DNA from: an uncultured virus (IMG/VR IMGVR_UViG_3300021197_001731)
Taxonomy: Duplodnaviria; Heunggongvirae; Uroviricota; Caudoviricetes
Strand: one strand, 5' to 3'
Virus record (IMG/VR): IMGVR_UViG_3300021197_001731
DNA length: 64,000 nt
The notes beneath the pieces are model-generated. The model was not told the origin of the DNA, searched no databases, and saw only the letters and a program-made list of their open reading frames with translations. The translations under genes were made by a program, and so were the position numbers. The stretch's first letter is position 1. The number at the start of each line of letters is the position of its first letter. Positions 16,934 through 53,525 of the stretch are shown piece after piece.

Positions 16934-16958
16934 ATTAAAAAGTAAGTGAATGCCATAT

Positions 16959-16991
16959 AGGCAATAGGAAATAAAGGACCCATTAGGGTCC
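16959..16991 (-). promoter_or_regulatory. Hairpin-plus-pentamer element
   Basis: AGGCA, then 18 nt to the loop of GGACCC-ATTA-GGGTCC. Confidence 0.75.
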
Positions 16992-17164
16992 GTATATCAG
17001 CGGTTTCGAGCAGGATCTAAAGCAGTTAACCGATTAGCTTCTGCTTGGCAGCGATCAGCCACCAATTGATAAACCTCTTGTGGGTTATCAGCTTCGTGTT
17101 CTCGAATTAATTGCACCAGGAAATGCATAAACAATTCTGTTAGCTCTCTTGTATTTGTCATTCG

Positions 17165-17332
17165 TCAGGCTGCTGCTAGTTCTCCTGCCATCTCAGCCAA
17201 CTTGGCTGTAGCACGACATTGAAGGACAATCCAGGCAAGCTCTCCTGATAGTTGATTTGTGTCGCAGAAATATTCGATTGTGTCGTCTATCAAACCTTCC
17301 AGCTCGGACAGCTGGTCGCGTGATAATTGCAT
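17165..17332 (-). CDS. Small hypothetical protein
   Basis: MQLSRDQL... downstream of hairpin GCGCCC-ATTA-GGGCGC (17384-17399). Confidence 0.55.
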   Translation of the reverse strand: MQLSRDQLSELEGLIDDTIEYFCDTNQLSGELAWIVLQCRATAKLAEMAGELAAA

Positions 17333-17419
17333 TCGTGAGAAATATAAGTGTTCAGGCCCATCGCCGGGCACAACATAAATATAGCGCCCATTAGGGCGCA
17401 ATGGCTATGACATTAATAC

Positions 17420-18039
17420 TTATTTTTTCAAGTTGTAATCAATTGATTTTGTTCGTTCAGCAAATTTTCCTTCTTTTCTACGACCTTGATATACATTCGC
17501 TTTAGAAGGAGCTCTTTCAGTTCCGTAGTAATGAGATGAGTAACTCGGAGATGGTGATGGTGATGGTTTAGGAGATGGAGAAGGTGAAGGAGAAGGTGAT
17601 GGAGATGGTTTAGGTCCCGGCATAGGCATATTCATACGCATAGGCATCTTCATAGGCATATTCATCATCATATTCATCATCATATTCATAGGCATCTTCA
17701 TAGGCATGAACATAGGCATGAACATAGGCATATTCATTCCAGGCATCTTCATAGGCATTGTCATCTTCATACCTGGCATCTTCATAGGCATGAACATAGG
17801 CATGAACATAGGCATATTCATTCCAGGCATATTCATTCCAGGCATNNNNNNNNNNNNNNNNNNNNNNNNNNNNNNNNNNNNNNNNNNNNNNNNNNNNNNN
17901 NNNNNNNNNNNNNNNNNNNNNNNNNNNNNNNNNNNNNNNNNNNNNTAGGTGAAGGCCTAGGTGAAGGCCTAGGTGAAGGTCTAGGTGAAGGTCTAGGCAT
18001 AGGCATGCTCATGCCCATCATCATGTTTCTTCTACCCAT
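17420..18039 (-). CDS. Met/Pro-rich low-complexity protein (probably one ORF spanning the N gap)
   Basis: MGRRNMMMGMSMPMP(RPSP)n, then the gap, then (MPGMN/MPMF/MPMK)n and (SP)n. Confidence 0.55.
17846..17945. other. Assembly gap (100 N) inside tandem repeats
   Basis: Run of N. Confidence 0.99.
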
Positions 18040-18042
18040 AAC

Positions 18043-18426
18043 CTATTCCTCAAATGTGGTGTCTCCAACTCCGTAATCTAAAGTTAATTCGGAGCCTGCG
18101 TGTATTGTTTTAATGGCATAAAATACCATACATTCATTGTAGTCATCAATGTAATAGTTTATATTACCTCCATCGTCAGTATGGTTATACAGTGCTGCAT
18201 GACCAAAGCCAATTACAGAGTATTCATCAGAGAATGCATAACAATGTGAGTGTATTACAGCTTCGTCTGTTTCTTCGTAAGGCAAATAAAGCATAGGAGA
18301 TTCTTCTATTAAATCTCCCTCCTTGAAGTCCTCGTTAGTGAAGACTCCATATCGATGTATGTTTGATTTTTTAATACAAAGACTAGGACTGGCAAACAAG
18401 TTAGTCTTGCTAAGATTTGGATTCAT
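18043..18426 (-). CDS. SET-domain protein (putative protein-lysine methyltransferase)
   Basis: IKKSNIHRYGVFT..DFKEGDLIE, YNH, and FYAIKTIHAGSELTLDYG are the canonical SET motifs. Confidence 0.88.
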   Translation of the reverse strand: MNPNLSKTNLFASPSLCIKKSNIHRYGVFTNEDFKEGDLIEESPMLYLPYEETDEAVIHSHCYAFSDEYSVIGFGHAALYNHTDDGGNINYYIDDYNECMVFYAIKTIHAGSELTLDYGVGDTTFEE

Positions 18427-18510
18427 ATGAAAAAAGTAGTTCCTTTTGATTTTAAAAGAAACTACTTATTTTTATGACTATTAATCAAATAAACTCAAGC
18501 TTATCTAATA

Positions 18511-18825
18511 TCAGCGACGTGCACGACGTGTGGTTTGACGCCTAGTTCTACGAGCTGCTGCACGTGCTTGGCCTGCTGAAGTATTGCGAGCTTTTACACG
18601 AGAAGAATTCTTGCCGTAAGTTTTACCGCCACGCATCATAGACTTGACTGCTCCAGAAGCAGTTTTGCGTGTAGCTGACTTAACTCCACCACCTGCAGTA
18701 CGACGACTTGTACGTGTAGATCCATCAGCATTAGTACGCTTACGACGAGTAATACCGCCTCGGCCTGCACGTTCTTGAACAGTAGCGCCAGATTTTGTCC
18801 TGCGCGTAGTAGTAGGTCGTCGCAT
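18511..18825 (-). CDS. Highly basic Arg/Thr-rich (protamine/histone-like) protein
   Basis: 104 aa, very Arg/Lys-rich, almost no acidic residues. Confidence 0.65.
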   Translation of the reverse strand: MRRPTTTRRTKSGATVQERAGRGGITRRKRTNADGSTRTSRRTAGGGVKSATRKTASGAVKSMMRGGKTYGKNSSRVKARNTSAGQARAAARRTRRQTTRRARR

Positions 18826-18875
18826 GATTAATTACAATCTAATTCTCTTAAATTGTATCAACTAATATTACTTAA

Positions 18876-19067
18876 TCACCAAAGTCCTGGAATCATTTGT
18901 CCTGTTACTGCATAACTTCCAATTGCTGCGATGATGCCGAGCATTGCTAAGCGTCCGTTGAGTTTTTCAGCTTTAGTGTTGTGGTCCATGGTGATCTCCA
19001 TAATTTGCATTTGTGGTTCTTTGGCGTAGATATTTGTTCTGCCGCCGTCCTCTATAATTGTCGTCAT
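18876..19067 (-). CDS. hli: High-light inducible protein
   Basis: AEKLNGRLAMLG...TGQMIPG motif. Confidence 0.95.
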   Translation of the reverse strand: MTTIIEDGGRTNIYAKEPQMQIMEITMDHNTKAEKLNGRLAMLGIIAAIGSYAVTGQMIPGLW

Positions 19068-19178
19068 TTTTCTTGTAATGTTTTGTTAAGCTTCTTAAGT
19101 ATAACCTCGAACTCTTGGTAACGAGGATTCTTAATTGAGATATTGTTTTGCATATAGAGAACTACTGCAGCGCGTATA

Positions 19179-19625
19179 TCATTCAACTGTTCTTGAGTTA
19201 GTTCTTCCATCGGAATTCCTAAGTATGTAATCTATGAGCCTTTGTAAATGCTCTGGACTGTCTTCGACAAGTCCTAGAACAATATTACAGTCTTTGCATA
19301 GTAATTGTCGAACATCACCTGTTACATGGTTGTGATCCACACACCATTGGTTGTGCTTTCCTCCAGGTCTTGAAGTACCGCAGCAGGCACACTTGGAGCC
19401 TTGAGCAAGCACCATCCGATTGAAAGTAGCAAGAGTGATGCCGTAACGACGCTGCAAATGTAAATCTCTTGATCGCTCTGGGTCTCGGGTAGCCTTAACC
19501 CTTGTTTTAGCACATTTTTTACACTCATGATGTCTAGCATTGGGATCTTTATCTGATTTTCTGCCAGTCTTATAAAACTCAGTTAAAGGTTTTATCTCAT
19601 GACATTTATTACATTTTCTATTCAT
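19179..19625 (-). CDS. Endonuclease VII-family free-standing (homing-type) endonuclease
   Basis: N-terminal CxxC...CxxC; RYGITL..F..M...QGSKCACC...VDHNHVTGDVRQLLCKDCN. Confidence 0.88.
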   Translation of the reverse strand: MNRKCNKCHEIKPLTEFYKTGRKSDKDPNARHHECKKCAKTRVKATRDPERSRDLHLQRRYGITLATFNRMVLAQGSKCACCGTSRPGGKHNQWCVDHNHVTGDVRQLLCKDCNIVLGLVEDSPEHLQRLIDYILRNSDGRTNSRTVE

Positions 19626-19676
19626 TTAAAAAGGCCCACCTAAGTGAGCCTAACTAAACTAATTGTGAGATGAGAG

Positions 19677-20762
19677 TTATCCGATAGAAGGTGCAGATAG
19701 AGCAACTTCAGTGGTCTTAGCAGTAGCCAAGTCCAATGGATAGTTATGAGCGTTACGTTCATGCATCACCTCCATTCCTAGTCCAGCACGGTTCAGAATG
19801 TCAGCCCACGTAGGGATGGGACGGCTTTGTGAATCAAGAATAGATTCATTAAAATTAAGACCATTGAGGTTGAAGGCCATGGTTGACACGCCAAGGGCGG
19901 TGAACCAGATGCCAACGACCGGCCAGCTTGCGAGGAAGAAGTGCAGTGAACGGGAGTTGTTGAACGAAGCGTATTGGAAAATCAAGCGACCGAAGTAGCC
20001 ATGAGCAGCGACGATGTTATACGTCTCTTCCTCTTGTCCAAACTTGTAGCCATAGTTCTGAGACTCAGTCTCTGTGGTCTCCCGGACCAAAGATGATGTA
20101 ACAAGAGAGCCATGCATAGCACTGAATAGACTGCCGCCGAAGACACCAGCTACTCCCAGCATGTGGAAGGGGTGCATGAGGATGTTGTGCTCTGCTTGGA
20201 ATACCAACATGTAGTTGAACGTACCGGAGATACCAAGTGGCATAGCATCAGAGAATGAACCTTGACCAAAGGGATAAACGAGAAAGACTGCGGATGCAGC
20301 TGCAACAGGTGCAGAGTAAGCAACGCAGATCCATGGGCGCATACCTAACCGGTAGCTAAGTTCCCATTCTCGTCCCATGTAAGCGAAGATACCGATAAGG
20401 AAGTGGAAGACAACAAGTTGGAATGGGCCTCCGTTATAGAGCCACTCGTCCAGTGAAGCCGCTTCCCAGATTGGGTAAAAATGCAAACCGATTGCGTTTG
20501 AAGACGGGACAACTGCTCCTGAAATAATGTTATTTCCGTAAAGGAGCGATCCAGCAACTGGTTCACGAATGCCATCGATATCTACAGGTGGTGCGCCAAC
20601 GAAGGCGATAATGAAGCAAATGGTTGCAGCAAGCAACGTAGGAATCATCAAGATGCCAAACCAGCCCACATAGAGGCGGTTGTCAGTTGATGTTACCCAC
20701 TTGCAAAACTGCTCCCAATTAGACTGCACGCCAGAAGCGCCAGTAAGAATTGTTGAAGCCAT
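19677..20762 (-). CDS. psbA: Photosystem II D1 protein
   Basis: Full-length, intron-less D1 (NRLYVGWFG...[13 protein letters not shown]) with Mn-cluster ligands retained. Confidence 0.99.
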
Positions 20763-21080
20763 TAAATTAATGCGGTGTTTTGTTTATTGGGTAATACTCA
20801 GGTGTGGTTAACCTTACTTAGTAATCATACATTTAATGTCAGGAAATAATGACAGTAAATATACTTAAAGATTAAGATCTCGTGTTCTAATCTTGTAGTC
20901 TAGCCGATAATCACGGGCCTGCTTACGTTCTTTCAGCTCATGCTCTAGGTGAGCGCAAAATCCTTTAGTTGATGGATGTTTAATAGTCTTTGACATTCTT
21001 TTCTCCTGTTTTACAACAGTCAGGAGCAGGGAATGCTCCCAACTTGTATATACTTTATCAGTGAATTCGCACAGATAAGA

Positions 21081-21422
21081 TTAAATATAAGTAAAGCTTA
21101 CATAATCTACACCGGGTCCAGTTAATCCAATTGCCTCAGCAGCACCACGAGATAAGTCGAGCTCACGAGCCCCAATGTACGGACCACGATCGTTAATTCG
21201 GACGTTGATACATCCTTGATAACAGACCTGTAGTCGCGTTCCAAAAGGGAGCGTCTTATGTGCTGCGGTAAGTCCCATTTGGTCATACACTTCTCCGTTC
21301 GCGGTGAGGCGACCGTGAAAGCCTGGTCCATACCAACTGGTGAGCATAGAGCCACCAGCGGATACGGATGTAGACAGAGCCAATAAAAGGGCACTAGAAG
21401 TGCAAAGAATTTTAGATAACAT
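21081..21422 (-). CDS. rlpA: RlpA-like DPBB lytic transglycosylase with signal peptide
   Basis: SWYGPGFHGRLTANGE, TAAHKTLPFGT, VRINDRGPY and DLSRGAA. Confidence 0.92.
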   Translation of the reverse strand: MLSKILCTSSALLLALSTSVSAGGSMLTSWYGPGFHGRLTANGEVYDQMGLTAAHKTLPFGTRLQVCYQGCINVRINDRGPYIGARELDLSRGAAEAIGLTGPGVDYVSFTYI

Positions 21423-21498
21423 AGGTTACTCATATTATTTATTAAACCTTAAGTTAACAAATAGGGAACACATTTACGTGCTCCCAATTGTATAACTA

Positions 21499-21735
21499 TC
21501 ACTCGGGATAGAGTGGGTCGTTGTTTTTATCGAATACATAAGTATTCTCTGGAGAAGACTCACGCCACGCATACTTAATGTGATCCCATTGAATGTCATA
21601 AACATCCATAGGAGCATTTACAAGTTCATCACGAGTGACAGACTCAAGTAATGCGTCGTGGTCTTCTGGTAGTTCATCACGTTCAACGGTGATGCGGAAT
21701 GAAGTAGTCACTTCATATTCAATATCTATTTTCAT
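21499..21735 (-). CDS. Hypothetical protein
   Basis: 78-aa coupled ORF. Confidence 0.55.
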   Translation of the reverse strand: MKIDIEYEVTTSFRITVERDELPEDHDALLESVTRDELVNAPMDVYDIQWDHIKYAWRESSPENTYVFDKNNDPLYPE

Positions 21736-22706
21736 TAGGCAGTGACAAGATCACGTGCGATAGCAAAGGCTTTCTTGCTGATGACAGCACCAGCACCGAA
21801 TGTGCCACGTGCAAACTGAGCACGTGTTTTTGCGGCAGTGACGCCACGAGTGCTTGTTTCTACTTGAGTAATAGCATTTAAGCCATTCCACAGTGAGAAT
21901 GATGCAAACTCTGAGCCATAGCCAGCACGGAATGCTTGCTCTAGCTTTTGACGCTTGCGGAATACATCACCTTCGCTGATGTTGTAGACCTCGTCAGCAA
22001 ACTCGTTAAAGCCGCTGGCACTCATATGTGTACGTGAGAATTCACGCATCAGGTCACACTCAGCAGTGAAGTCTTGCCGAGCCACATCGATACTCTCGAT
22101 AAGAGCATCAAAGTTAGCGTTAGCAGTGCCTTTGTGAGTGATGCTTGATTGAGCGCCACTCTCGTTGAGAGCAGCAGTCAATGTGTTCTGACAGACAACA
22201 CGGATGTTGGTGAACTTTGCACCACAACCAGTCTTGCCGTCATGTCCTAGATAGCCGACAATGCGACGTTTTACTGTGTCACCAGGGACGATGTCCGTCT
22301 CCGCACCACGGAGTGTGGCGGTAAAACAGACTTTGGCCCCGTCTGATAGAACGATGACGCAGTCCATGTCTGCCTCTTCGCGGATAAACTCCGCCATGCG
22401 AAGCAGCGATTCATTTTGAACGATTTCGTACTGCTTGGTGACAACACCGAGCAAGGCTTGGGTGTCAGTACGGACAACTCCGAAGTGACCTGTCGGCTGA
22501 TAGCAAACTCGTCCTGGCAAGTAGCCGTTGGACTCTGAGTCAAAGACGTGAGTTGGGAGTTTGAGTTCTCGCTTCTCGACAGAAAATAGTGCGTCTGCTG
22601 TTTCAAACGCCTCTCGCGCTGGAAGCGTGCCAGGGGTGACAACCCCAAGCCCGTGCCATGCACGTTCGCCATTGCCGAGCCAGCCAGATGTGAAATTTGC
22701 GGGCAT
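21735..22706 (-). CDS. DUF932/DUF945 phage-plasmid family protein
   Basis: AWHGLG, VRTDT..LLGVV...YEIVQN, GHDG and IRVVCQNTL. Start at ATG 22706, downstream of a hairpin element. Confidence 0.85.
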   Translation of the reverse strand: MPANFTSGWLGNGERAWHGLGVVTPGTLPAREAFETADALFSVEKRELKLPTHVFDSESNGYLPGRVCYQPTGHFGVVRTDTQALLGVVTKQYEIVQNESLLRMAEFIREEADMDCVIVLSDGAKVCFTATLRGAETDIVPGDTVKRRIVGYLGHDGKTGCGAKFTNIRVVCQNTLTAALNESGAQSSITHKGTANANFDALIESIDVARQDFTAECDLMREFSRTHMSASGFNEFADEVYNISEGDVFRKRQKLEQAFRAGYGSEFASFSLWNGLNAITQVETSTRGVTAAKTRAQFARGTFGAGAVISKKAFAIARDLVTA

Positions 22707-22725
22707 TGATTTGTAGCCATGTATT

Positions 22726-22758
22726 GGACATAAATGATTAGAGACCCCGTTAGGGGTC
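22726..22758 (-). promoter_or_regulatory. Hairpin-plus-pentamer element
   Basis: GGACA, then 18 nt to the loop of GACCCC-GTTA-GGGGTC. Confidence 0.75.
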
Positions 22759-22883
22759 ACCTAAAGTATGCCTATTAATTGAGAAATGGCTATCTAGTAA
22801 AAAGAATTTTGGATGGAATAAAGATATAACCATGTCTAGACATTTATCGTCCTAAGTTTTGTTAAGTGAATAAGCAAAAAAAA

Positions 22884-23201
22884 TTAGCCGGTCAAATCAA
22901 TAAAGGCAGACACTTTTTCTGAAAGCTGCCAGGAGCCTTCATAAACTCCGGCTCTACATGCAGTGACATGCTCACAAGCGAAGCATGGATGACCATAACA
23001 ATCTTTGGTTAATCGCTTATCAAGCATTATTGACCTGAAGGTAAATACAGAGTTTATATATCCGCAAATTTGTGAGTGCTTTTGCATAGACGCTCTCGTG
23101 GACTCGTACATGACTTCAGACATAGTCATGCCCCAGGCATTGGCGTAGTCTTTCAAAAGTGCATGGCACTTGTCCGGCATCTGTACTTGAATTTTTTTCA
23201 T
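22884..23201 (-). CDS. Ribbon-helix-helix-like regulator with C-terminal Cys/His cluster (paralog 1)
   Basis: KKIQVQMPD...LKDYANAWGMTMSEVM followed by CYGxxCxxCxHxxAC. Confidence 0.65.
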   Translation of the reverse strand: MKKIQVQMPDKCHALLKDYANAWGMTMSEVMYESTRASMQKHSQICGYINSVFTFRSIMLDKRLTKDCYGHPCFACEHVTACRAGVYEGSWQLSEKVSAFIDLTG

Positions 23202-23217
23202 GAGTTGGTATGTATGT

Positions 23218-23535
23218 TCAGATTGAACCTTTTAAGAGATGTTGATGTTCATCGGCAATTTCCCAGAGACTTTTATAAAGCCCTGTTCTACAAGCCACCT
23301 GGTGCTTACAGCAACGACATAAATAGCCATAACAAGCTTTAGCCACTCTTTTATCGAGGGTTGCGCCATGTTTTTCCAGTAGCTGCTCAGAAAGCTGGCA
23401 GACATTACTAGAAGAATGTATGTGCTGCTTTACAGCTTCATACATAAGCTCGCCCATTGTCATTCCCCAGTAAGCGCAGTATTCCTTTAGAACAGCTGCA
23501 AAGGGGTCATCGACCTTGACGTCGATACGCTGCAT
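23218..23535 (-). CDS. Ribbon-helix-helix-like regulator with C-terminal Cys/His cluster (paralog 2)
   Basis: RIDVKVDD...LKEYCAYWGMTMGELM followed by CYGxxCxxCxHxxAC. Confidence 0.65.
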   Translation of the reverse strand: MQRIDVKVDDPFAAVLKEYCAYWGMTMGELMYEAVKQHIHSSSNVCQLSEQLLEKHGATLDKRVAKACYGYLCRCCKHQVACRTGLYKSLWEIADEHQHLLKGSI

Positions 23536-23611
23536 AAGCGATTATGCCGATGCCAATTAAATTACAGAATAATGGGTACGAATAGAGCAAAATTTTCGAA
23601 ATTTGACTCGG

Positions 23612-23779
23612 TTAAGTTTCGTTAAGTGCTTCATTTTTAGCTATACCTTTTTGTCGTATATACATTTTTATGGCTTCACACATGACATCTTGCATGGTGA
23701 CGCCGTTTAAAACGGAATATATCTTGAGATCCTTATGCAAGTCCTCAGGCAGGACTGCGGTTACACGCTTGTCAGTGAT
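23612..23779 (-). CDS. Small RHH (ParG-like) protein with apparent ATC start
   Basis: Manual translation ITDKRVTAVLPEDLHKDLKIYSVLNGVTMQDVMCEAIKMYI...; AGGAGG lies 9 nt upstream of the ATC. Confidence 0.6.
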   Translation of the reverse strand: MTDKRVTAVLPEDLHKDLKIYSVLNGVTMQDVMCEAIKMYIRQKGIAKNEALNET

Positions 23780-23872
23780 AAGACAGGTCCTCCTACGGTC
23801 ATTCTAGGTAGAAATGCCTTGAGTTACGCAATTCCCATTTTCATGAGAAAGCAGTTTTACATTTGAAGAGAA

Positions 23873-24116
23873 CGTAGCAGCCTGAAAACCTTGTTTTTTT
23901 GCTTGTATTCAGCTGCAAGGCAAGAGAACTGGTCAAAACGTACCCCAATAAAATCATGGGAAAACTACGTTTGCTACGCTTCTTCCTTATATATCTCTTT
24001 TTTAATGCACTCCCTCTATTTTTTAATGGTTATATAGGGAATTAGCGTAGTTAGCGTAGCTTTTTAAGTAGTGGGTACTAAAAAACCCAGCACTTGACTG
24101 GGCTTTGGCTGCTACG
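23873..24116. repeat. Origin-like element A (inverted CTACG/CGTAG pairs around an AT-rich core)
   Basis: CTACG at 23965, 23974 and 24112; CGTAG at 23873, 24046 and 24055. Confidence 0.55.
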
Positions 24117-24822
24117 CAATGGTTGGTCTAAATTGAAAGATATCTTTTACGTTGTCTTTATAGTCCCCTGCATATTGTTGAGCAAGCTCATTGACGTCAG
24201 TAGTAGGTCGATAGGGGTTTGCTTCTTCAGAATTAAAAGCCATATCTTGAAAATTGCTCTTGTAAGGAGACAAATTTCCTCCAGCTCCATAACCTTCTTC
24301 CCAATCTTTAAGGATCCCTGCTTGTTTCAAAAGCTCGGGTGAAGGCTCATATGGCTCTTCAGGTGTATCAGGCGTAATAGCAGTATCAGTTTGTTCGTCG
24401 TCAACTTTCATAGATGAAATCAAATCATCCCTGCTTTTTGCAAAAAGATCCTGAGCAATTTGTGCAGAGTCATTTGCAGAATTAACTTTATTAATATCTA
24501 ATTCTTTGTTGCCATATTTTTGCATAGCTCGAAGAGCACTAGTGACTTCAGACATATTGCTGATGCCACTACCTAAATCTTTAAAATGTTTGTTATCAAC
24601 ATCGCGTCCATATTTCATGGATTCACGTACGTCGTAATCATTTGCTAAAGCACGAGCAATCGCGGCTTCCTCAGCTTCAGCGTCATATCCACCACGACCA
24701 GTAATTTCAGTTTGACGATCATCAATACGGTCAAGACCGTATTCTTTCATTAACTTCGCACGAGTTGCTTCTTTCTGGCTCCAATTCTGCGCATCCCAAT
24801 TTTTAATCTTACTTCTAGCCAT
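24112..24822 (-). CDS. Hypothetical protein (virion-internal-like composition)
   Basis: 236-aa ORF. Confidence 0.65.
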   Translation of the reverse strand: MARSKIKNWDAQNWSQKEATRAKLMKEYGLDRIDDRQTEITGRGGYDAEAEEAAIARALANDYDVRESMKYGRDVDNKHFKDLGSGISNMSEVTSALRAMQKYGNKELDINKVNSANDSAQIAQDLFAKSRDDLISSMKVDDEQTDTAITPDTPEEPYEPSPELLKQAGILKDWEEGYGAGGNLSPYKSNFQDMAFNSEEANPYRPTTDVNELAQQYAGDYKDNVKDIFQFRPTIA

Positions 24823-24844
24823 GACACAATTTATAGATATAAAT

Positions 24845-25042
24845 CTATTTTACTTGGTCTGAAGTTGACTTTTTAGGTTTGTAGTACAGGGGTTCATCGA
24901 GATAATCGCAGACAAGTTCTGCTAGGTCCCAATAGTGAGTAAACCAGTCAGCTATTAGTCCTGAGTGGGGTAGTACGTGATATCGATATTCGACATCATC
25001 TATTTCGTCAAGAATTTTGTCGCGTAGTTCCTGCTTGTTCAT
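24845..25042 (-). CDS. Hypothetical protein
   Basis: 65-aa ORF. Confidence 0.5.
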   Translation of the reverse strand: MNKQELRDKILDEIDDVEYRYHVLPHSGLIADWFTHYWDLAELVCDYLDEPLYYKPKKSTSDQVK

Positions 25043-25169
25043 ATTTAGAGTCTAAGCATAAATAGTATTTAGTGCCGACTATTGGCTCTAGTTACTTATT
25101 CAAATTAAATAGAATTAAGTAGTAGATAGTGATACTTATGTGAATACATAATCATAGGTATAGATGTGA

Positions 25170-25946: not shown

Positions 25947-26179
25947 TTTAGGATAGATTTTCCCAACAGCTTAAATATTTCTCAGTAGGGATCAACATAG
26001 TTTCTATGGCTGGAATGTAAGTCGTTGATATTTGGTCTACGTCCATATAATCAACAGTCATGACGCCAGGGCTGCTTTCAATTGCGCCAACGATAAAGAC
26101 TGACAAAAGTAATGAGCACATATTTATTGCATGTATAGATCACTAAAAAATAGGCTAGCCAATAGGCCAGCCTTTTGTG

Positions 26180-26413
26180 TCAGATAATTGGAAGGTTTGA
26201 TTCGATTGTTTGAATCGCCTCGCGCAATGTTGCACCTGCATAACCAGATGCACCTGAGTAAAACTCAGTCGGCTCTGCATGTATGTCCTCTTGTGATTGA
26301 GGCCAGCTAATAGGCCGTGCCTTGCGACAATAGCCTTCAGAGAGACGCATCATGGTTAGCAGATGATCAAGTTGGTGTCTAGGAATAGAGACCATCTCAA
26401 ATTCGAAGTTCAT
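26180..26413 (-). CDS. Hypothetical protein
   Basis: MNFEFEM... downstream of the hairpin element at 26428-26460. Confidence 0.55.
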   Translation of the reverse strand: MNFEFEMVSIPRHQLDHLLTMMRLSEGYCRKARPISWPQSQEDIHAEPTEFYSGASGYAGATLREAIQTIESNLPII

Positions 26414-26472
26414 GTGTGCCGTGTATGGGACACAAAGAACTAAACCGCCCATTAGGGCGGAATCGTTTCAAA

Positions 26473-26544
26473 CGACCCATGCGAGATTTGAACTCGCGAT
26501 ACCACCGTGACAGGGTGGCGTGATAACCACTTCACTAATGGGTC
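26473..26544 (-). tRNA. tRNA-Asp (GTC), CCA not encoded
   Basis: Reverse complement GACCCATTAGTGAAGTGGTTATCACGCCACCCTGTCACGGTGGTATCGCGAGTTCAAATCTCGCATGGGTCG folds as a cloverleaf with anticodon GTC and a TTCAA T-loop. Confidence 0.93.
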
Positions 26545-26663
26545 TAATGGAGTGTGGGTATAAGGATTCCAAAAATCATGCCTAGGCAGTACATAGCCAG
26601 GCCATAAATTACAGTCGTTTCCTTCATAGTAAATCTACTCGATGTCTTTAATTTAGTGGTGAT

Positions 26664-27215
26664 TTATAGTCCATAGGGAAATACTTGTTCAGGATGTGCA
26701 TCCCAGTATTTATCATTTTTTCTGAGATGGACGGCGTCGATGCCTTGCATGTGAGCGCCTTGAATGTTGTAAGGAGAGTCATCGAATAGGGTTCCGACTT
26801 GGCGGTAATCTTCTTGTAGTTTTTGAAGCATTGCTTGCTTAGCAACACCGGATGGTTCACCACCAGTGCTTAGCATGATTTGATCAAACGGTACGTTGTG
26901 CCGTTGTAACCATTCGATAGTCTCTTGAAGGCGTTCAGCCGGACGTGCTGTAGCGATAGCAATACGGTCGCCCTTGCTTGCAAGTAATTGCGCAAGTTCT
27001 ACGACTGCTTCGTCAGCAGGAAAGTCACGTGCAGCGTCAAAGAACTGATCTTTAGTCAGACCAGTGTTGTCAAAGCCTTCAGGCTTACGAGTAAGAGTGT
27101 CATCTACATCAAATGCATGAACGATTGCCTGTTTATCAGCAGGGGTTAGTTCAGCGCCCTTGAAAAGATCGGCGGCAAATCGTCTCATATCTCTATTTAA
27201 GTAGATATTATTCAT
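26664..27215 (-). CDS. HAD-superfamily phosphatase (PNKP 3'-phosphatase-like)
   Basis: FDVDDTL, ATAR, K and FDDSPYN HAD motifs. Confidence 0.85.
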   Translation of the reverse strand: MNNIYLNRDMRRFAADLFKGAELTPADKQAIVHAFDVDDTLTRKPEGFDNTGLTKDQFFDAARDFPADEAVVELAQLLASKGDRIAIATARPAERLQETIEWLQRHNVPFDQIMLSTGGEPSGVAKQAMLQKLQEDYRQVGTLFDDSPYNIQGAHMQGIDAVHLRKNDKYWDAHPEQVFPYGL

Positions 27216-27259
27216 TGTAGTAATGTTGATAAAATTAATAGATATAAGTCATATGTAAT

Positions 27260-28423
27260 ATGTCAAGAATTAGTCTTGCTAAACAGTTAGGTGGAGATCG
27301 TTTGGAAGCAGCTGCAGATGCACTGTTAAACGACCTGACTGGATCTACTCGATATGGCAAGACGAGGGAGATGGATTATGTGTTCCCTAGTGATCGGTTG
27401 ACTGCAGATAATGTTGAAGAGAGTATTACCCGTCTTGGTGCACGCAACCCCGCAAAGCTCACATATGGGCCTGATGGCAGCATCGTGGGAATTGAGGGAG
27501 GTGACGTTATACGCAACAAGAAGGGAGGGATCAACATTGATCAGGTGCCGTCCCCCTATGGGAGGGACTACGTCAAGTACAGCCCTTCAGTCGTCGATAG
27601 CACTACAAGTGAACTAGTAGAAGCTCAGTTGTATCCAGAGCGCTTTACAGGCGCTACAGGCCAGCTAGGAGCTGCAAGAGATATGGGCTTGGCCCACAGG
27701 TACAACGACTACGACCGATACAGGGCAATTAATGACCGTATGGAGGTCACACCAGAAGCATTGGCGCGGTTTGGTGCAGTAGTGACCAAAGGAAAGGCAG
27801 ATAAGCCAATCGCGGCAGCAATGTCAGGTGGAGGTGCAATCCTCGGAAGTCGGGGAGACACCGTATTGATTCCAGGGACAGACAAGGTATTCAGTTCATT
27901 ACCCAGTGGGGAGAAGGCTGCTTATTTAGGTGAGAGGGGAGATGTCTTTCTTAATCAGTGGCTACAGCAAAAGGGTGGTTCGATGGGAACAGCACAGTCA
28001 GTGATATTCCCTCCTGGGCGACCTAGCCATATGGACCACATTCAATCGCTGTCCAGCAGCATTGATGCGAAAGGTCCAGCAGGGTGGGGTTATAGCGATG
28101 ATCCAACTAACTTCAGCTACTTGGACGCTGACTACAACGTCAATACAAAGCTGAACTACGACTTACAGACGGTGCATCAGCTCGGTCGTCTAGCGGACAC
28201 CATGCGTCAAGACGGATATGGAGCACGACTACCGAAGAACCTCACTGATAAGGAGTTAAGCGATCCAGACCGTAAACGTCTGACTCAGAACGAGGCTATT
28301 GGTGAGTTGGTCATGAAGACCATTCCACCTACAGCAGACACACGGGAACTGGAGTACGCCTTGGGGATGCTCCGTCAAGCAGAGCGTGAGCAAATGCAGT
28401 GGAATGGTGGGTTAGCTAGCTGA
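27260..28423 (+). CDS. Hypothetical protein with C-terminal HNH-like motif
   Basis: HMDHIQSLS...DDPTNFSYL...N..K. Confidence 0.65.
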   Translation: MSRISLAKQLGGDRLEAAADALLNDLTGSTRYGKTREMDYVFPSDRLTADNVEESITRLGARNPAKLTYGPDGSIVGIEGGDVIRNKKGGINIDQVPSPYGRDYVKYSPSVVDSTTSELVEAQLYPERFTGATGQLGAARDMGLAHRYNDYDRYRAINDRMEVTPEALARFGAVVTKGKADKPIAAAMSGGGAILGSRGDTVLIPGTDKVFSSLPSGEKAAYLGERGDVFLNQWLQQKGGSMGTAQSVIFPPGRPSHMDHIQSLSSSIDAKGPAGWGYSDDPTNFSYLDADYNVNTKLNYDLQTVHQLGRLADTMRQDGYGARLPKNLTDKELSDPDRKRLTQNEAIGELVMKTIPPTADTRELEYALGMLRQAEREQMQWNGGLAS

Positions 28424-28819
28424 ACTCATCCATCCCTTGCATAAATTGAAGGGTAGGGCCGTATGCGGCTCGGATCTCGCGTGTTAGTGCTTTGAGCTTT
28501 AAGGCGTTGTGCACAGCAGTAGCTGTAGATATTGCGGATTGATCGCGTGCTTTCGCAGCATTATTAACAGTCTGTTGAATGGATGCTAAATCTGATAAAC
28601 GCTCTCTATTGAAGTTCATAATCGTCAAACAGATGGAAAGTCAGCAGCAGTAAACGGAACAGTTCGTCCATATGCAGCTGCCATGTCACGTTCCGTCTGA
28701 CGAGCAATGATTTCTTGAGCTTCTTCTTGACGAAGTTTCATAAGTTGTTCATTTCGTTTCATTGTCTCTGACATTGCTTGCATAATGCGGTTATCACCGG
28801 CAAAGCGATCGATATTCAT
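28416..28819 (-). CDS. Two small paralogous proteins (28625-28819 and 28416-28628)
   Basis: Both end with AAYG(P/R)T(L/V)xF. Confidence 0.55.
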
Positions 28820-28844
28820 AGCAAAAGCACACGGTATTTATATT

Positions 28845-29063
28845 CTAAAGTTTTCCAGAAACTACAGAACTATGAGGTACTGAAGTGTATCCGTCAAACT
28901 CACCCTTGAGGACGGGGATGTGGATATTTTCTGTGACCCATCGGCAGCCTTCTTCTGTTGGTCCAGTGACCATGCGGTCACCAGACTTAAGGACAGAAGT
29001 ATAAAGGCCAAACCTTGACTTTTCGATTGAAAACTCATATGTTTCCTTAGCTTTTCTAGGCAT
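28845..29063 (-). CDS. Hypothetical protein
   Basis: 72-aa ORF ending VVSGKL. Confidence 0.6.
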   Translation of the reverse strand: MPRKAKETYEFSIEKSRFGLYTSVLKSGDRMVTGPTEEGCRWVTENIHIPVLKGEFDGYTSVPHSSVVSGKL

Positions 29064-29137
29064 GTGTATATTTAAGCTCTGTCTAGTTTAGTAAGAAATG
29101 CAAAAAAGTGGCCCTCATTAGAGGACCACATTGATCA

Positions 29138-29557
29138 TTAAGCTACAGGTTCGAGAGCAGGAGCTTCGTCAACAACGACGTCACCTTCGTCTTCTTTCTT
29201 GAGAGGACCGTAGCCACCACTCAAAACAACAGCGTTGCTAAGTTTGAGCTCAGGGCGACGGCGGAATGCAGAAGTACCAGTCTTTTTGTCAACGTAGGTT
29301 TCAGAGAAACCAGACACGTGACCAGTGACGGTGATACGACGTCCAGGGACCAACTTGCCTTTTTTAAAATCAGCAAGCAACCCGTTGTTACTATTGATTT
29401 TGATGGAGACTGCTTCTGCATCATTGATAAGCTCAGAGAGCACAGTCAAGGAGAGAAACTCTCCATACTGACCGTCAACTACTTCAGCAAATGACACTCG
29501 ACCAGTGATGGTAAGAGCATTGAACTGAGCGAAGGTACGGTCGTAGGAAGTTGTCAT
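29138..29557 (-). CDS. SSB-like OB-fold protein (second copy)
   Basis: NALTITGRV...L..GRRITVTGHV and an acidic tail. Confidence 0.6.
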   Translation of the reverse strand: MTTSYDRTFAQFNALTITGRVSFAEVVDGQYGEFLSLTVLSELINDAEAVSIKINSNNGLLADFKKGKLVPGRRITVTGHVSGFSETYVDKKTGTSAFRRRPELKLSNAVVLSGGYGPLKKEDEGDVVVDEAPALEPVA

Positions 29558-29617
29558 GAGAAAGAACTCATATAAAGAACACGAGAAAAAAGAGGACCCA
29601 TTAGGGTCCGTAGGTTG

Positions 29618-30013
29618 TTACTCACAACAAGGTGTGGGTATGACAGTGAAGTCGTCATCGCAGACACCGACTGTTGTCAGGATGTTCATGATTGCCTGGA
29701 ACTTTCCGGCATCTTTTGCCCATCCGATTGCAGTAGTTGTTTGACCATCTTCAACAAGACGTTCAGCAGCTTTTGTGTGCCATTCCATAAGGCTATGGAT
29801 GATCTCACAGGCAGCAAGCTTGTGCACAATGGGGTGATTGATCTCGTCAGTCATCTCAGAGAGCTTGTCACGGACAACTTCTGAGACTTGGTCTGCAGTA
29901 TGTCCGGCATAAGAAGCGCCTGCTTCTTTATCTACGGGCTCTACTTCTTGTTGAGCTGTGATCATCAAATCTGCAAGATCTTCGAAAGAGATGCTGTCAG
30001 GTGTAGCAGACAT
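29618..30013 (-). CDS. Hypothetical protein
   Basis: 131-aa ORF bracketed by two hairpin elements. Confidence 0.65.
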   Translation of the reverse strand: MSATPDSISFEDLADLMITAQQEVEPVDKEAGASYAGHTADQVSEVVRDKLSEMTDEINHPIVHKLAACEIIHSLMEWHTKAAERLVEDGQTTTAIGWAKDAGKFQAIMNILTTVGVCDDDFTVIPTPCCE

Positions 30014-30200
30014 ATTTTATGCGTAAAGAACATTAGAAACTCAAGGACCCATTAGGGTCCAAAGTTCTATCTGTGAGCTACTTGCTTAGCAATACGGATG
30101 TATTGTTTGCGCTTGTTAGCAAGATAATTAGCCACAATGATGTTCATAATCTTTATGTATAGGACATAAGCGAAAAAAGCCCCCGTGAGGGGGCATAGGT

Positions 30201-30446
30201 TCAAACTTCTGCTAAAAAGGCACCAAAGTCGTGTAGTTTCTCGCCACAGATGGCAAGGACTAATCCGACATTGTTTACGCCTTTACGGCAGCGTTGTCCG
30301 ACATCATTCCAATCAATTGATTTAACAGCAGATACTGCGTCATCAATTGGAGGAAATGCGGGTGTCTTACTTGCATAAGCACGTTCTTCAGCAATATCAA
30401 AAGACTCGTCGAGACTTACTGCATTTGCTGTTGAGATAATAGTCAT
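30201..30446 (-). CDS. Hypothetical protein
   Basis: 81-aa ORF bracketed by hairpin elements. Confidence 0.6.
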   Translation of the reverse strand: MTIISTANAVSLDESFDIAEERAYASKTPAFPPIDDAVSAVKSIDWNDVGQRCRKGVNNVGLVLAICGEKLHDFGAFLAEV

Positions 30447-31254
30447 TGATAATTATCAAAGGACAACAGCGGTAAAAGGCCCCATTAGGGGCCTCGTGAT
30501 CTTAGTGATGAGGTCGGCGGCATAGCCACTCATCTGATTCCATCATCGCTTCACGGATGATGTATGCACGACGTGCCCGTTCTTCGGAAAGCTCTTGATA
30601 TTCAAGAGTACCGGGGAAGTCATGCGGATCCAGAGGTAATTCAGTCATACCTATATTGTTATGGACAATAGAGTCAAAACCCCCCATTAGGGGGGTCTTA
30701 TGTGTTACTCAGACGAGCGCAGCACAGAAGTGTGCATGCTCAGCGTCAGAAATGAAATCACCGATTGCTTCGTTGACAAGAGGTACAGAACCATCGTTTA
30801 GATAGGCGTACTCCTCTTCTTTCGTGAGGTAGCTGAAGGCGTCTTCGTTCTGAGCAACTACAAGACTGATGCCAGGTACCAGTGTGTCACTGATGATCTG
30901 GAAGTCGAAAGTAGTCGCCATAAAGACAGAACTGATGAAGAACATCAATTCTTAGAGGACCCATTAGGGTCCTAGGCTGTCCATTCTTCGGAAGCTTCAG
31001 GCAACAAATCGTGCTCTATTTGGAGCTCGTTGATTGTTTCCTTAAGCTGATCGGCAGCACGTTCATATGCGAGTAGTCTCTTTTGTAGGACAGCGATTTC
31101 ATCCGCTGCTTGTTTCTGTCTGAGCTCTGCATATTTGGCATCTGAGATGACATAGACATCTCCGCCAAAGGGGATTTGAGCCATATCGTTTATCAAATGA
31201 AAGGGTGAGAGGTTATAGAAGGACATCCTGCTTCTTTATATATACCGGACTTTA

Positions 31255-31521
31255 CTAAGATAGACTGTCCAGGTCTCTACGTTGGTGAGTAGAACCGTCC
31301 TGGTTCTTGGTAATTTCCCGAACCATGTCGTCGTAGAAGTCGTCGCCAAACTGTCGTCGAATCTTCTTCTCTAAGTCTTCTCCACCAAGTACAGATACAT
31401 CGTTATAGATGATCTGATGAAGGTAGGATAGTGCCTTATGGTGAGACATACTTTCCACTACAGCGGAAGCATATTCTTCCTTAGCTCTCATGAGCTCTCG
31501 TCCTGTTAATGCAGTCATCAC
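31255..31521 (-). CDS. Hypothetical protein
   Basis: 88-aa ORF. Confidence 0.55.
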   Translation of the reverse strand: MMTALTGRELMRAKEEYASAVVESMSHHKALSYLHQIIYNDVSVLGGEDLEKKIRRQFGDDFYDDMVREITKNQDGSTHQRRDLDSLS

Positions 31522-31953
31522 TGATATCGTCCGTTAGATGTACGGTTGCGCTTGAAGCTATAAGTTGCAACTGTAGCTGTAGCAAACAGTCCCAACATTC
31601 CAATGATAGCCAGGATGATTGTAGATGAGTCGTATGTAATCATTAGATGATGATATAAAGAACATGTATAAATAGACCACCCATTAGGGTGGATATTCTT
31701 ATGGTGTAACGACTGCTATATCCTCCTTAGGGAAGATGAATGGCAGTAGAACCATAGGGAATGCTAGCACTTCTATGTGGAGACCCACGGTAATTGCTGC
31801 ATAGATTGGTAGTAGAACTTTCATACTCTGTGTATAGATAACACAGAAGAAAAGAGAGCTTGTTAATGCTCTAGTTCACGGTATGAGTATCGTCTTAATT
31901 ATTTCTTAATAAGCCTAATATAATACAATGAGGGTACTGATAGTTACATAGTA

Positions 31954-32358
31954 ATGCGTAGAACTCCCGCCTATCGAATGGCAGCATCACAGCCAGTGAT
32001 AGATGATATTATCGACATGGAGCAGGTACAGCCAGGCATACTGTCGCAACTGTTGGAAAAGATCCGCGAGATTGACGACAAATATGCAAGGGGAGTACGT
32101 GACAGGGTAATGGTAGATAGTCCCCAAGGTAATGTTGACACTATGAGAAACACTGTGGGAGCAGTGATAGGTACACCATTGGGACATGGACTACCGGAAG
32201 TCGTAGGTGATCCACGGATGATTGATCAGATAGCAAGGTATGCAGTACCTGCTGCTTCTGCAGGAGTGAGGTATGGAATCCCACTAGCAGCAGCAAGCAC
32301 ATTGGCAGATGCAACCGGTGACTTTTACGATTACATCAGTGAGTACGGCGAAGCATGA
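31954..32358 (+). CDS. Hypothetical protein, antisense within the early array
   Basis: 134 aa; TACAAT at 31924 upstream; contains the RMAA motif. Confidence 0.65.
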   Translation: MRRTPAYRMAASQPVIDDIIDMEQVQPGILSQLLEKIREIDDKYARGVRDRVMVDSPQGNVDTMRNTVGAVIGTPLGHGLPEVVGDPRMIDQIARYAVPAASAGVRYGIPLAAASTLADATGDFYDYISEYGEA

Positions 32359-33361
32359 CTAAAAAACCCCCCGTAAGGGGGGAAGTAAGCTCAAGCCGCA
32401 GAGGCGGAGGGAGCAGAAGTGTCAGAGCCTTTGGCGTCTGCGTTGGCATTCATGTTATTGATAGCCTTCTTAGCTGAGTAGAAGGAACCACCGAATGCGA
32501 TGCTATCGATGCCACCATCAGCGTGTACTACGCCAATGTCAAAGACGTCGTAGTCGAAATTCTGAGTGTCCGTAGGAACACGGTCGAATAGACGGAGAGA
32601 CAGGTCAGTACCAGGAATGCGAATCATAGATTTGTATGTATAGAACAATGCCGTATAGGCAAGAAGAAATAGAGAGCGCGTTAGCGCTCATCAGTTGTGT
32701 GCTCTGAGGCTATGCATCGAGAGCTGTCACCCAGTACTTGTACCAAGGCCAGTCACGTTGATAACGTTGACGCAGAGCTGATGCTCTTTCATATGACATT
32801 GGAGGGTAGGTCATAGCTGAGACTTGACCGTTACGCTCAACGAGTAGTTGATACATGAGTGAGATATATAGAGAACACGAAGAAATAACCCCCGCGTTAG
32901 CAGGGGAACTGTGTTTAGAAAGGGATTTCATCGAACTCAGCTTTCTCCATAGGCTGATCCAGGAAGAGTGGGTACTCTTCATCAGGAGCATTACAGTCAT
33001 AGTTGTAGACAACGCCAACGTAGTTGCCGTTCTCGTCTATGTACGTGTAGCCAGTGTTACCAAACTGTTGAAGGAAGATCATGATGTAATTATGAGAAGA
33101 ACACAGTGAAATAGACCACCCATTTGGGTGGCCATTGTTGTTAGAAGATAAGGTTGTTAATTTGCTGTGATGAGGGGACATAGTCGAGACGAACGTCGTC
33201 CCAGTCCTCGAAGGACTTAGCAAATGACTTAGCTTCTTGATACGAGTCAAAGCATTCACGTACAGCGTTGAAGCTGTCGTAACCGCTGATCTCGTAGAAG
33301 GTGACTGTGTACATCTGAATGATGTAAAGAACACTCACAGGCACAGAGCGCGTTAGCGCTC

Positions 33362-38558: not shown

Positions 38559-38615
38559 GACAAATATTCAACCAAGCTAAAATAAATAAGAGATTAAAAT
38601 TACTGCCAAAATAAT

Positions 38616-53477: not shown

Positions 53478-53525
53478 CTAAATATAAAATAGGGACTACA
53501 TTTAATATATAGACAAGAGAATAAT

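Follow-up and report, generated by a model that had tools for sequence, protein, structure and literature searches.

The locus and its genes

The 64,000-nt IMG/VR record IMGVR_UViG_3300021197_001731 (the window, by which we mean the whole stretch that was analysed) carries on its minus strand 17 copies of a short intergenic unit, in nearly all of which a GC-rich hairpin and a T-rich run are followed at a fixed distance by a conserved TGTYCT box and the start of a small early gene. The units lie in the leftward arm of the genome, where genes are on the minus strand from ~33,300 down to base 1; from 34,070 onward they are on the plus strand. Between the two arms is a non-coding divergent region (33,362-34,070), which is placed at the record ends by alignment with G002, a complete relative of 83,953 bp that is ~90% identical to the window and has a 304-bp terminal repeat, although this repeat may be a mere sign of circular assembly. 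PHROG matches in the window include psbA (19677-20762), a primase-helicase, ribonucleotide reductase, the terminase large subunit (TerL), a portal-like virion protein, the major head protein, an endolysin and a sigma factor.

Judged by its sequence, the window is from a marine, psbA-bearing cyanophage of the S-EIV1 lineage. TerL is 54.2% identical to that of Synechococcus phage S-EIV1 across 98% of the protein, with all other cultured phages below 25%, and a nucleotide search of 29000-34000 against cultured phages gave no match; we therefore treat the window as an uncultured relative of S-EIV1. The portal-like protein and the phage sigma factor are each encoded in at least 598 IMG/VR stretches, and no IMG/VR relative of the protein at 34070-35338 was found by the pattern route. 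According to one paper, the genus-level group to which S-EIV1 belongs made up 3.3% of mapped cyanophage reads in its data set (PMC5332604).

The units

An element is present at each of the 17 positions given in the first-pass annotation, which had described a plus-strand pentamer separated by exactly 18 nt from the loop of a small hairpin. The conserved motif exists, but it is better read on the minus (gene-sense) strand and is longer than a pentamer, TGTYCT being followed by a weaker WTAYAT. The 18 nt correspond to the 6-bp 3' arm of the stem plus a 12-nt spacer, and a start codon is present behind every copy, as had been reported. The copy at ~17366, noted as off by one, is indeed odd, in that GTGCC and a second GC hairpin stand where the box would be. 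The units are listed below with their covariance-model E values, with alignment ends against two close relatives (G002 and G003) and with joints or loose ends in RNA-library contigs. This RNA evidence consists of assembled contigs from four RNA-library runs of one sample; the contigs give no starts, ends or strand, and the parts that they leave uncovered are uninformative.

33314..33365, minus strand: unit e33329; hairpin GAGCGC-TAAC-GCGCTC (33346-33361), 12-nt spacer, box TGTTCTTTACAT, ATG 33314; E 8.5e-9; first unit past the non-coding divergent region, with no gene upstream to terminate
33084..33135, minus strand: unit e33099; hairpin CCACCC-AAAT-GGGTGG, box TGTTCTTCTCAT; E 1e-9; G002 alignment ends at 33078 and 33103, RNA-library joints or loose ends at 33097, 33105 and 33117
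32858..32909, minus strand: unit e32873; hairpin CCCCTGC-TAAC-GCGGGGG (one mismatch), box TGTTCTCTATAT; E 1.3e-8; alignment ends at 32909 (G002) and at 32908 and 32853 (G003), with ~467 extra bases there in G003
32642..32693, minus strand: unit e32657; hairpin GAGCGC-TAAC-GCGCTC, variant TGCCTATACGGCA; E 1.3e-7; loose end at 32692
31824..31875, minus strand: unit e31839; hairpin GAGC(AT)-TAAC-(AA)GCTC, box TGTTATCTATAC, ATG 31824; E 1.2e-8; alignment ends at 31878 (G002, G003)
31645..31696, minus strand: unit e31660; hairpin CCACCC-TAAT-GGGTGG, box TGTTCTTTATAT, ATG 31643; E 9.4e-12; RNA-library contig diverges at 31692
30925..30976, minus strand: unit e30940; hairpin AGGACCC-TAAT-GGGTCCT, box TGTTCTTCATCA; E 2.8e-8
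30648..30699, minus strand: unit e30663; hairpin ACCCCCC-TAAT-GGGGGGT, box TGTCCATAACAA; E 5.8e-9
30446..30497, minus strand: unit e30461; hairpin AGGCCCC-TAAT-GGGGCCT, box TGTCCTTTGATA, ATG 30446; E 2.2e-8; with e30162, one of the two ends of a 299-base stretch absent in relatives; G002 alignment end at 30474
30147..30198, minus strand: unit e30162; hairpin GCCCCC-TCAC-GGGGGC, TTTTTT, box TGTCCTATACAT; E 1.3e-10; the other end of that stretch
30013..30064, minus strand: unit e30028; hairpin GGACCC-TAAT-GGGTCC, box TGTTCTTTACGC, ATG 30013; E 4e-11
29562..29613, minus strand: unit e29577; hairpin GGACCC-TAAT-GGGTCC, TCTTTTTT, box TGTTCTTTATAT, ATG 29557; E 7e-12
26413..26464, minus strand: unit e26428, directly behind tRNA-Asp (26473-26544); hairpin CCGCCC-TAAT-GGGCGG, box TGTCCCATACAC; E 4e-11; loose end at 26463
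26123..26174, minus strand: unit e26138; 9-bp hairpin AGGCTGGCC-TATT-GGCTAGCCT, box TGATCTATACAT, ATG 26121; E 1.9e-8
22711..22762, minus strand: unit e22726; hairpin GACCCC-TAAC-GGGGTC, box TGTCCAATACAT; E 6.3e-11; heads the run from the DUF932 gene (21735-22706) toward psbA
17352..17403, minus strand: unit e17366, deviant; hairpin GCGCCC-TAAT-GGGCGC, GTGCC and second GC hairpin, no box; E 3.1e-6
16944..16995, minus strand: unit e16959; hairpin GGACCC-TAAT-GGGTCC, variant box TGCCTATATGGCA, ATG 16933; E 7.9e-9

In e16959 and e32657 the box is replaced by TGCCTATAYGGCA. Three related sites lie among the units:

32636..32647, minus strand: regular box TGTTCTATACAT, 14 nt behind the variant box of e32657; ATG 32627
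32367..32382, no strand assigned: box-less hairpin CCCCCC-TTAC-GGGGGG with T runs on both sides, terminator only; model E 0.041
29108..29129, minus strand: terminator-like hairpin GTGGTCCTC-TAAT-GAGGGCCAC with TTTTTT, then a TTAAATATAC-type motif and no box; ATG 29063; model E 0.35

Detection and statistics

A covariance model made from the 17 window copies and searched with filters off returned exactly 17 copies in the window (E <= 3.1e-6), each of them on the minus strand and within 16944-33365. Recovery of the copies used for building the model is by construction, and the informative part is the absence of comparable other hits: the next one (32335-32386, E 0.041) is a similar hairpin without a box between convergent genes. 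The plain pattern CCTAAYGG-N16-TGYYC with at most one mismatch gave 11 matches, again all on the minus strand, compared with a mean of 0.26 and a maximum of 2 in 100 dinucleotide-preserving shuffles. Covariation of the stem, which had been claimed from inspection, is borne out by counting: 99.0% of cells are paired in the 17 window copies with two-sided changes at 6/6 pairs, and across 71 distinct copies from six genomes pairing is 99.1%, with all six pairs changed on both sides. RNAalifold predicts the same 6-bp helix, and the hairpin is formed in 17/17 minimum-energy folds. An Rfam search of the window found tRNA-Asp as the sole family match at gathering score and left the element unmatched. 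Scanning IMG/VR with the exact pattern CCCTAATGGG-N14-TGTYC gave 59 loci with one match apiece and no multi-copy locus, a result that we regard as uninformative. The element is real, conserved and functionally coherent.

Anatomy of the unit

Read in the sense of the genes, a unit begins right behind the preceding stop codon and consists of the GC hairpin, a T-rich run, TGTYCT(W)TAYAT 12 nt after the stem, and the ATG. The stem is 6 bp and extends up to 9 bp; the window loops are TAAT in 9 copies, TAAC in 5 and other sequences in 3 (14/17 TAAT or TAAC). Base counts were pooled from 68 unique copies in six genomes. The 12-nt spacer opens T-Y-T-W-T-T-T, with T at positions 1 and 3 in 63/68 copies. 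The box itself is well conserved (T1 63, G2 62, T3 55, Y4 64, C5 53 and T6 52, each of 68), and its WTAYAT tail is weaker, with T8, A9, A11 and T12 found in only 40-43/68. The A of the ATG lies 19 nt past the T of TGT in 26/68 copies and 18-24 nt past it in 48/68; the six copies with an ATG offset of 8-13 are probably false starts inside the box, and for another 6/68 the script found no ATG-led open reading frame (ORF). The bases at offsets 16-19 before the ATG are G-poor (6-9 G among 68), and there is no Shine-Dalgarno sequence.

The first-pass annotation held that ordinary terminators would not keep such a spacing. That claim is unsupported, as 12/17 unit hairpins pass the tool's criteria for intrinsic terminators in the sense direction, and terminator-like sites between 16000 and 35000 number 43 compared with 13.0 +/- 4.2 in shuffles. 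The hairpin also occurs alone, at 32367-32382, and with a different AT-rich start motif, at 29108-29129; hairpin and box are therefore separable modules. The lone hairpin lies between the convergent genes 31954-32358 (plus) and 32391-32627 (minus) and closes the former in a two-way arrangement; an alignment end (32361), an RNA-library loose end (32383) and a joint (32388) fall beside it.

A second hairpin round the box (TGT-YCNWT-ACA plus flanks) was considered and rejected. It appears in ~9/17 minimum-energy folds and the whole helix is 58.0% paired in the 71 distinct copies, but its outer four pairs are 44.0% paired compared with 43.4% in shuffles, and 198/500 shuffles were as high. TGT..AYA is thus a conserved sequence, and the helix is unsupported.

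Conservation in relatives

Scanning related genomes with the covariance model, a check proposed in the first-pass annotation, showed that five IMG/VR genomes carry units with the 12-nt spacing kept. Hits at E <= 1 number 21 in G002, 23 in G003, 14 in G004 (100% complete according to CheckV), 17 in G005 and 5 in G006. The fetched stretches gave 78 hits at E <= 0.01, none of them off the gene strand, and the spacer is 12 nt in 78/78 model-fitted hits. To this we add a model-free count of perfect hairpins with TGTYY within 30 nt, in which the end of the stem and TGTYY lie 12 (or 11) nt apart in 11/11 cases in the window, 10/13 in G004, 5/11 in G005 and 4/4 in G006; 14/25 window hairpins have no such TGTYY. 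Each genome has its own arm and loop (GCCGGY-TAAC in G005, GCCCCC with 3-nt TCC or TCT loops in G004, GCCNNC-TTTC in G006), and orthologous positions therefore carry genome-specific hairpins. G001 offers only short fragments, with identities of 77-97%.

No model hit at E <= 0.1 was found in the more distant records G007-G011, of which G009 is 85% complete and G010 and G011 are fragments, and in G007-G009 and S-EIV1 the 12-mer is no commoner than its reversed control. S-EIV1 lacks the unit. It has instead six copies of a different 23-nt box, NGTCCYRAGYATGACN'YTAAAST, before leftward genes, in which the outer pair N/N' covaries (T-A, G-C, C-G, A-T) in 6/6 copies:

43013, 39529, 38810, 33603, 30514 and 25920, minus strand (S-EIV1 record positions): copies of the S-EIV1 23-nt box

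Probable recombination seams

The genes between elements, and their order, vary among genomes of ~90% identity, and alignments end on elements; whether gene content is shuffled between elements was a check proposed in the first-pass annotation. Alignment ends fall within 5 nt of a unit in 8/14 cases against G002 (26,000-33,400) and 3/6 against G003, 11/20 together, whereas 12.6% of positions lie this close to a unit. G002 lacks 30,193-30,473, which comprises one gene and one unit. RNA-library contigs from 4/4 runs contain the joint 30180>30480, which runs from hairpin to hairpin with 4 shared letters, and other contigs diverge at the hairpin edges 31,692, 32,383, 26,463 and 32,692. Adapter-tagged ends of these assembled contigs (31730, 31746, 31892, 32747, 33286, 26628) lie off boxes and hairpins, and we base no conclusion on them. 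The cassette at 33,078-33,334 is on the other side of its neighbour in G002, and a crude map of ORF families, made by greedy choice from ATG-led ORFs with a minimum of 35 codons, indicates that near the genome end the window, G002 and G003 have different genes between their units. From these comparisons, relatives have most likely swapped genes at the units, with recombination as the presumed cause.

The main off-unit alignment ends flank tRNA-Asp. Beside this tRNA (26545-26548), G002, G003 and the RNA-library contigs have ~520-540 extra bases holding a ~160-codon gene that the window lacks, and the gene's family has a different location in G005.

The box and other start motifs

The box heads units only: no TGTYCT precedes the examined genes that follow another gene without a hairpin. 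It is therefore not a general translation signal, and its placement fits the start signal of one promoter class. A canonical sigma-70 reading of the box was rejected, there being no -35 at 16-18 bp and the T run being too near (13 bp). LexA, NtcA, MotA-box, sigma-54 and extracytoplasmic function (ECF) readings, considered on the basis of consensus sequences, do not appear to fit the geometry. This half of the unit does not look like any standard cyanobacterial promoter in its sequence.

A strict scan for canonical promoters (TTG-type -35 with 5/6 matches, 16-18 bp spacer, TAnnnT) gave 11 matches in the 64 kb. None of the 11 is inside a unit, and only one lies in an intergenic spacer just before a gene, that of the sigma factor. 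In 14 relatives the -35 and spacing of this promoter are kept, and both T's of the -10 (TAnnnT) are invariant with A at >=90%. The minus strand of 33362-34070 has no canonical promoter that could feed a precursor.

53474..53502, plus strand: canonical promoter TTGACT-N17-TACATT, 23 nt before the sigma-gene ATG

Genes past long spacers without a hairpin (29063, 28819, 27215, 24822) have an AT-rich motif like TATAAATA or CTAAATAT instead of the box. This second start motif (CTAAATATA or TATAAATA type), which resembles T4 late promoters, is found ahead of structural genes and some leftward ones, and S-EIV1 has TAAAATAAA at matching places. In two hand-aligned promoters the distance from the late-type motif CTAAATAT to the -10 is not fixed, and CTAAATAT is therefore not assignable to sigma region 4.

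38590-38600, 40810-40820, 49775-49790, 53480-53495, 56055-56070 and 57955-57965, and on the minus strand before 28819, 29063 and 24822: second AT-rich start motif

In the leader of the major head gene (55990-56149) the hairpin GTGACT-AAGTCGAA-GTCAC is conserved and shows compensatory changes among relatives; the leader also holds a GGAG as Shine-Dalgarno sequence, which is rare in this phage, and a conserved TAnnAT lies upstream.

The phage sigma factor and the reader of the box

53526..54464, plus strand: phage sigma-70-family factor with regions 1.2, 2, 3 and 4; candidate reader of a non-canonical promoter class

The first-pass annotation makes no mention of this gene. The closest solved structure to the factor is cyanobacterial SigA (E 2.8e-73), and the best 80 of at least 598 IMG/VR relatives are 78-98% identical to it. 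Its residues that read the -10 and extended -10 are those of the host. Region 4.2 reads SRDRVRTLE, compared with TRERIRQIE in host SigA, and is invariant in 12 relatives. Sigma gene and box are both present in the window and G002-G006 and both absent from S-EIV1, G007, G008, G009 and the fragments G010 and G011. This co-occurrence is probably one evolutionary event, and the intact region 4 in the protein sequence argues for a two-box promoter, which the unit does not have. Because of this single split, the intact region 4 without a two-box unit, and the box of S-EIV1 without a sigma gene, we consider it doubtful that the phage sigma factor is the reader of the box, and we give similar odds to each of two others, host holoenzyme acting by itself and a phage factor that went unrecognised.

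The first-pass annotation saw no RNA polymerase in the window, and PHROGs and Pfam recognise none. These searches covered ORFs of at least 150 aa (most in the window and all 11 in the remaining 20 kb of G002) and, with 24+19 window proteins and 11+6 G002 proteins, found no RNA polymerase, whether N4-like or two-barrel. A scan of ORFs of at least 200 aa found the DxDGD motif in the primase only. An ESM Atlas search with the 955-aa protein at 35380-38247 gave no usable hit, and several large proteins remain unassigned. Of the two things that had been proposed for a search of the genome rest, G002 thus yielded no recognised polymerase but did yield a recombinase, a tyrosine integrase (L187:554-1399) that is outside the window. 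Its copies in G003, G005 and G006 are merely 34-36% identical, though G002 and G003 are otherwise ~90% alike, and no match was found in G004 or G008. New in this analysis are the lead to a sigma cascade, the 12-nt ruler measured independently of any model, and the rejection of the second hairpin.

Comparison with known systems

Among the three options raised in the first-pass annotation, a PeSL-like system fits best, in that the element appears as a regulatory joint and a recombination boundary with conserved spacing and with alignment ends on elements. PeSLs are reported as cassettes of promoter plus stem-loop terminator where T4-type phages exchange ORFans, with sigma-70-like promoters (TTGACA-N17-TATAAT, TTTACW-N17-TAYWAT or TTGYVH-N17-TAWWAT, AT-rich upstream) and with promoter activity, terminator activity and mini-circles experimentally shown (PMC2839356, PMC4122927). 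Compared with PeSLs as described there, the units share the combination of an intergenic stem-loop terminator with a start signal, repeated before small non-essential ORFs (here 17/17 units), a stem-loop sequence typical of each phage pair, and indels or replacements between close relatives that end in elements. They differ in having no sigma-70-like promoter but a conserved TGTYCT with the ATG ~19 nt on, and in lying in an S-EIV1-lineage genome rather than in a T4-type myovirus with hyperplastic regions; PeSL functions, moreover, were shown by experiment, and those of the units are predicted from sequence. As a sigma-70-like promoter and a T4-type host genome are both lacking here, and these are two defining features, the element works like a PeSL yet is a variant rather than a member. 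Within the literature searched (S-EIV1, cyanophage early promoters and terminators, PeSLs; the S-EIV1 genome paper was not covered) no such units are described for S-EIV1-like phages.

The units resemble intrinsic terminators in their GC stem of 6-9 bp, 3-5 nt loop, immediate T-rich run, sense direction and position directly past stop codons. They differ in being fused at a fixed 12 nt to a box, in a loop that is conserved per genome, and in the one unit without an upstream gene. The S-EIV1 23-nt box resembles them in that it belongs to the same lineage, stands ahead of leftward early genes and includes GTCC as well as a small inverted repeat (NGTC...GACN'); it differs in its 6 copies, the lack of a GC hairpin and T run ahead, the 50-60 nt to the ATG and the absence of a sigma gene.

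Early promoters of phage N4 are small hairpins read by the virion RNA polymerase, a phage-encoded enzyme of the T7-like superfamily, with the start ~11 nt from the loop centre. As in N4, small hairpins precede early genes near the genome end, and structure rather than stem sequence is conserved. The N4-style option, however, lacks its polymerase, none of N4 type having been recognised among the scanned proteins of the window and of the rest of the complete relative. The units further differ in their loops, of 4 nt in most cases, in a box that begins 20 nt away from the centre of the loop, in their number (17-23 instead of a handful) and in the terminator-like T run that follows the hairpin. 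The phage phiEco32 encodes a sigma factor, gp36, with single-box promoters. The likeness to it is that the sigma gene is likely expressed by the unmodified host enzyme and that many genes are headed by one box without a -35, whereas the sigma factor here keeps an intact, invariant region 4 and its link to the box is co-occurrence only. Integron attC sites are 57-141 bp long and imperfect, with extrahelical bases; here no integron-type tyrosine recombinase is linked to the array.

A proposed explanation and its rivals

We think it reasonably probable, on the sequence evidence, that the units are PeSL-like terminator-plus-promoter joints that double as recombination seams. The first half (6-bp GC hairpin, tetraloop, TYTWTTT) would be the Rho-independent terminator of the preceding gene, and the second half, TGTYCT with the weaker TAYAT and an ATG ~19 nt past the T of TGT, would serve the next gene as its start signal. 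In this way the majority of small early genes, singly or in short groups, would form their own insulated cassettes. Because a ~50-nt sequence recurs 17-23 times in one orientation within a genome, homologous recombination between copies would delete, insert and re-order cassettes and keep the hairpins of one genome alike. Should TAYAT act as a -10, transcription would begin on the ATG or a few bases from it, and the messages would be leaderless or nearly so. We infer from sequence that the hairpins terminate transcription, that the box has promoter activity and that recombination caused the swaps; terminator half and seam behaviour appear well supported by it, and a promoter role of the box is probable.

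Several observations pull the other way. The box lacks a -35 partner, and what lies 16-18 bp upstream of TAYAT is just the variable stem arm; the sixth position of TAYAT is T in just 8/68 copies; sigma-70-like matches are not enriched (30 vs 38.2 +/- 6.9 in shuffles); and the promoters of the sigma and capsid genes show an invariant TAnnnT or TAnnAT, unlike the box. As to termination, 5/17 hairpins fail the tool's T-tract rule, and the first unit (33314-33365) carries a hairpin although no gene lies upstream. Whole-gene breakpoints must be intergenic and the spacers here are almost wholly units, so that the raw numbers overstate the evidence from breakpoint enrichment; the close kinship of the window, G002 and G003 also means that their counts are not independent. 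Finally, the 12-nt spacing is kept across genomes with differing hairpins, which two independent modules would not need.

This last point also speaks for a rival reading in which hairpin, 12-nt ruler and TGTYCT are one signal, a hairpin-anchored promoter for a phage-directed transcription machine, of which host core enzyme plus phage sigma factor is the most concrete candidate. The spacing is constant in six genomes despite differing arms, loop sequences and loop lengths (3-5 nt), there is a hairpin before the very first gene where nothing is to be terminated, and the box is non-canonical while the phage uses canonical promoters elsewhere. The window and G002-G006 have both the box and the sigma gene; the latter owns the sole well-placed canonical promoter of the window and encodes DNA-reading regions that do not vary among 12 relatives and that depart from host SigA at fixed residues. 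The co-occurrence, however, probably reflects a single evolutionary split and is therefore effectively n = 1; with region 4.2 intact and invariant, a -35-type element would be expected, and at 16-18 bp ahead of TAYAT no such element is conserved. S-EIV1, which has no sigma gene, carries a non-canonical 23-nt box of its own, which means that the lineage has another reader. Among the scanned proteins none was recognised as an RNA polymerase of the N4-like or two-barrel kind, and copying within a genome by recombination could alone preserve the spacing. We judge such a promoter improbable, and a full cascade even more so, in which host polymerase would transcribe the sigma gene from its canonical promoter and the sigma factor, its -35-reading helix rewritten, would then bring the polymerase to hairpin-anchored single-box promoters giving leaderless messages for about twenty host-takeover genes, with the units doubling as seams.

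It is likewise unlikely that the units act at the RNA level, within long precursors in which hairpin and U run would be a processing or 3'-stabilising site (for RNase E, for example) and the box a Shine-Dalgarno-independent translation start for genes that cannot be translationally coupled across the hairpin. The near-fixed distance from box to ATG (48/68 at 18-24 nt), the G-poor bases before the ATG, the few genes of this phage with a Shine-Dalgarno sequence, and the stable hairpin followed by a U-rich run would suit this, and RNA-library contigs span several units (28307-31697, for example), which is not proof of single transcripts and may be DNA. Genes 29063, 28819, 27215 and 24822, however, are translated without a box and have another AT-rich motif in its place, the minus strand of 33362-34070 offers no canonical promoter for a precursor, the second hairpin round the box is unsupported (44.0% vs 43.4%), and Rfam has no match. 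Far less probable than either is an integron-like cassette system, with the hairpins as structure-recognised, attC-like sites for a phage tyrosine recombinase. Single-gene cassettes in one orientation, bounded by hairpins whose structure rather than sequence is conserved, have that appearance, and G002 does encode a tyrosine integrase with diverged copies in G003, G005 and G006; but the complete G004 has 14 units at E <= 1 and no integrase match, the integrase is distant from the array, the hairpins, of 16 nt with perfect 6-bp stems, are unlike attC sites, and the 30180/30480 crossover is compatible with plain homologous exchange over shared letters.

Other features of the window

Near psbA are genes for endonuclease VII (a junction resolvase; 19179-19625), a SET-domain protein (18043-18426), a DPBB_1 protein (lytic transglycosylase-like; 21081-21422) and a DUF932 protein (21735-22706). 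Three plus-strand ORFs of unknown function lie within the leftward early arm (25170-25946, 27260-28423, 31954-32358). There are two runs of 100 N, at 7888-7987 and 17846-17945, the second of which interrupts the gene 17420-17845; this gene has internal repeats, giving many overlapping G003 alignments. A 680-aa protein of unassigned family (43294-45336) probably contains an intein, since it shows sub-threshold intein and Hint signals (Hom_end_hint, Intein_splicing).

Significance

The early genes that decide host takeover are unknown ORFs throughout, in a clade that is abundant in the sea and carries psbA. A portable stop-plus-start joint, if that is what the units are, would explain both the expression of these genes one by one and their rapid swapping between relatives. 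Since the start half is unlike standard cyanobacterial promoters, finding its reader would reveal a mechanism undescribed for cyanophages, and the conserved phage sigma factor, paired with a canonical promoter of its own, offers a concrete first experimental lead.

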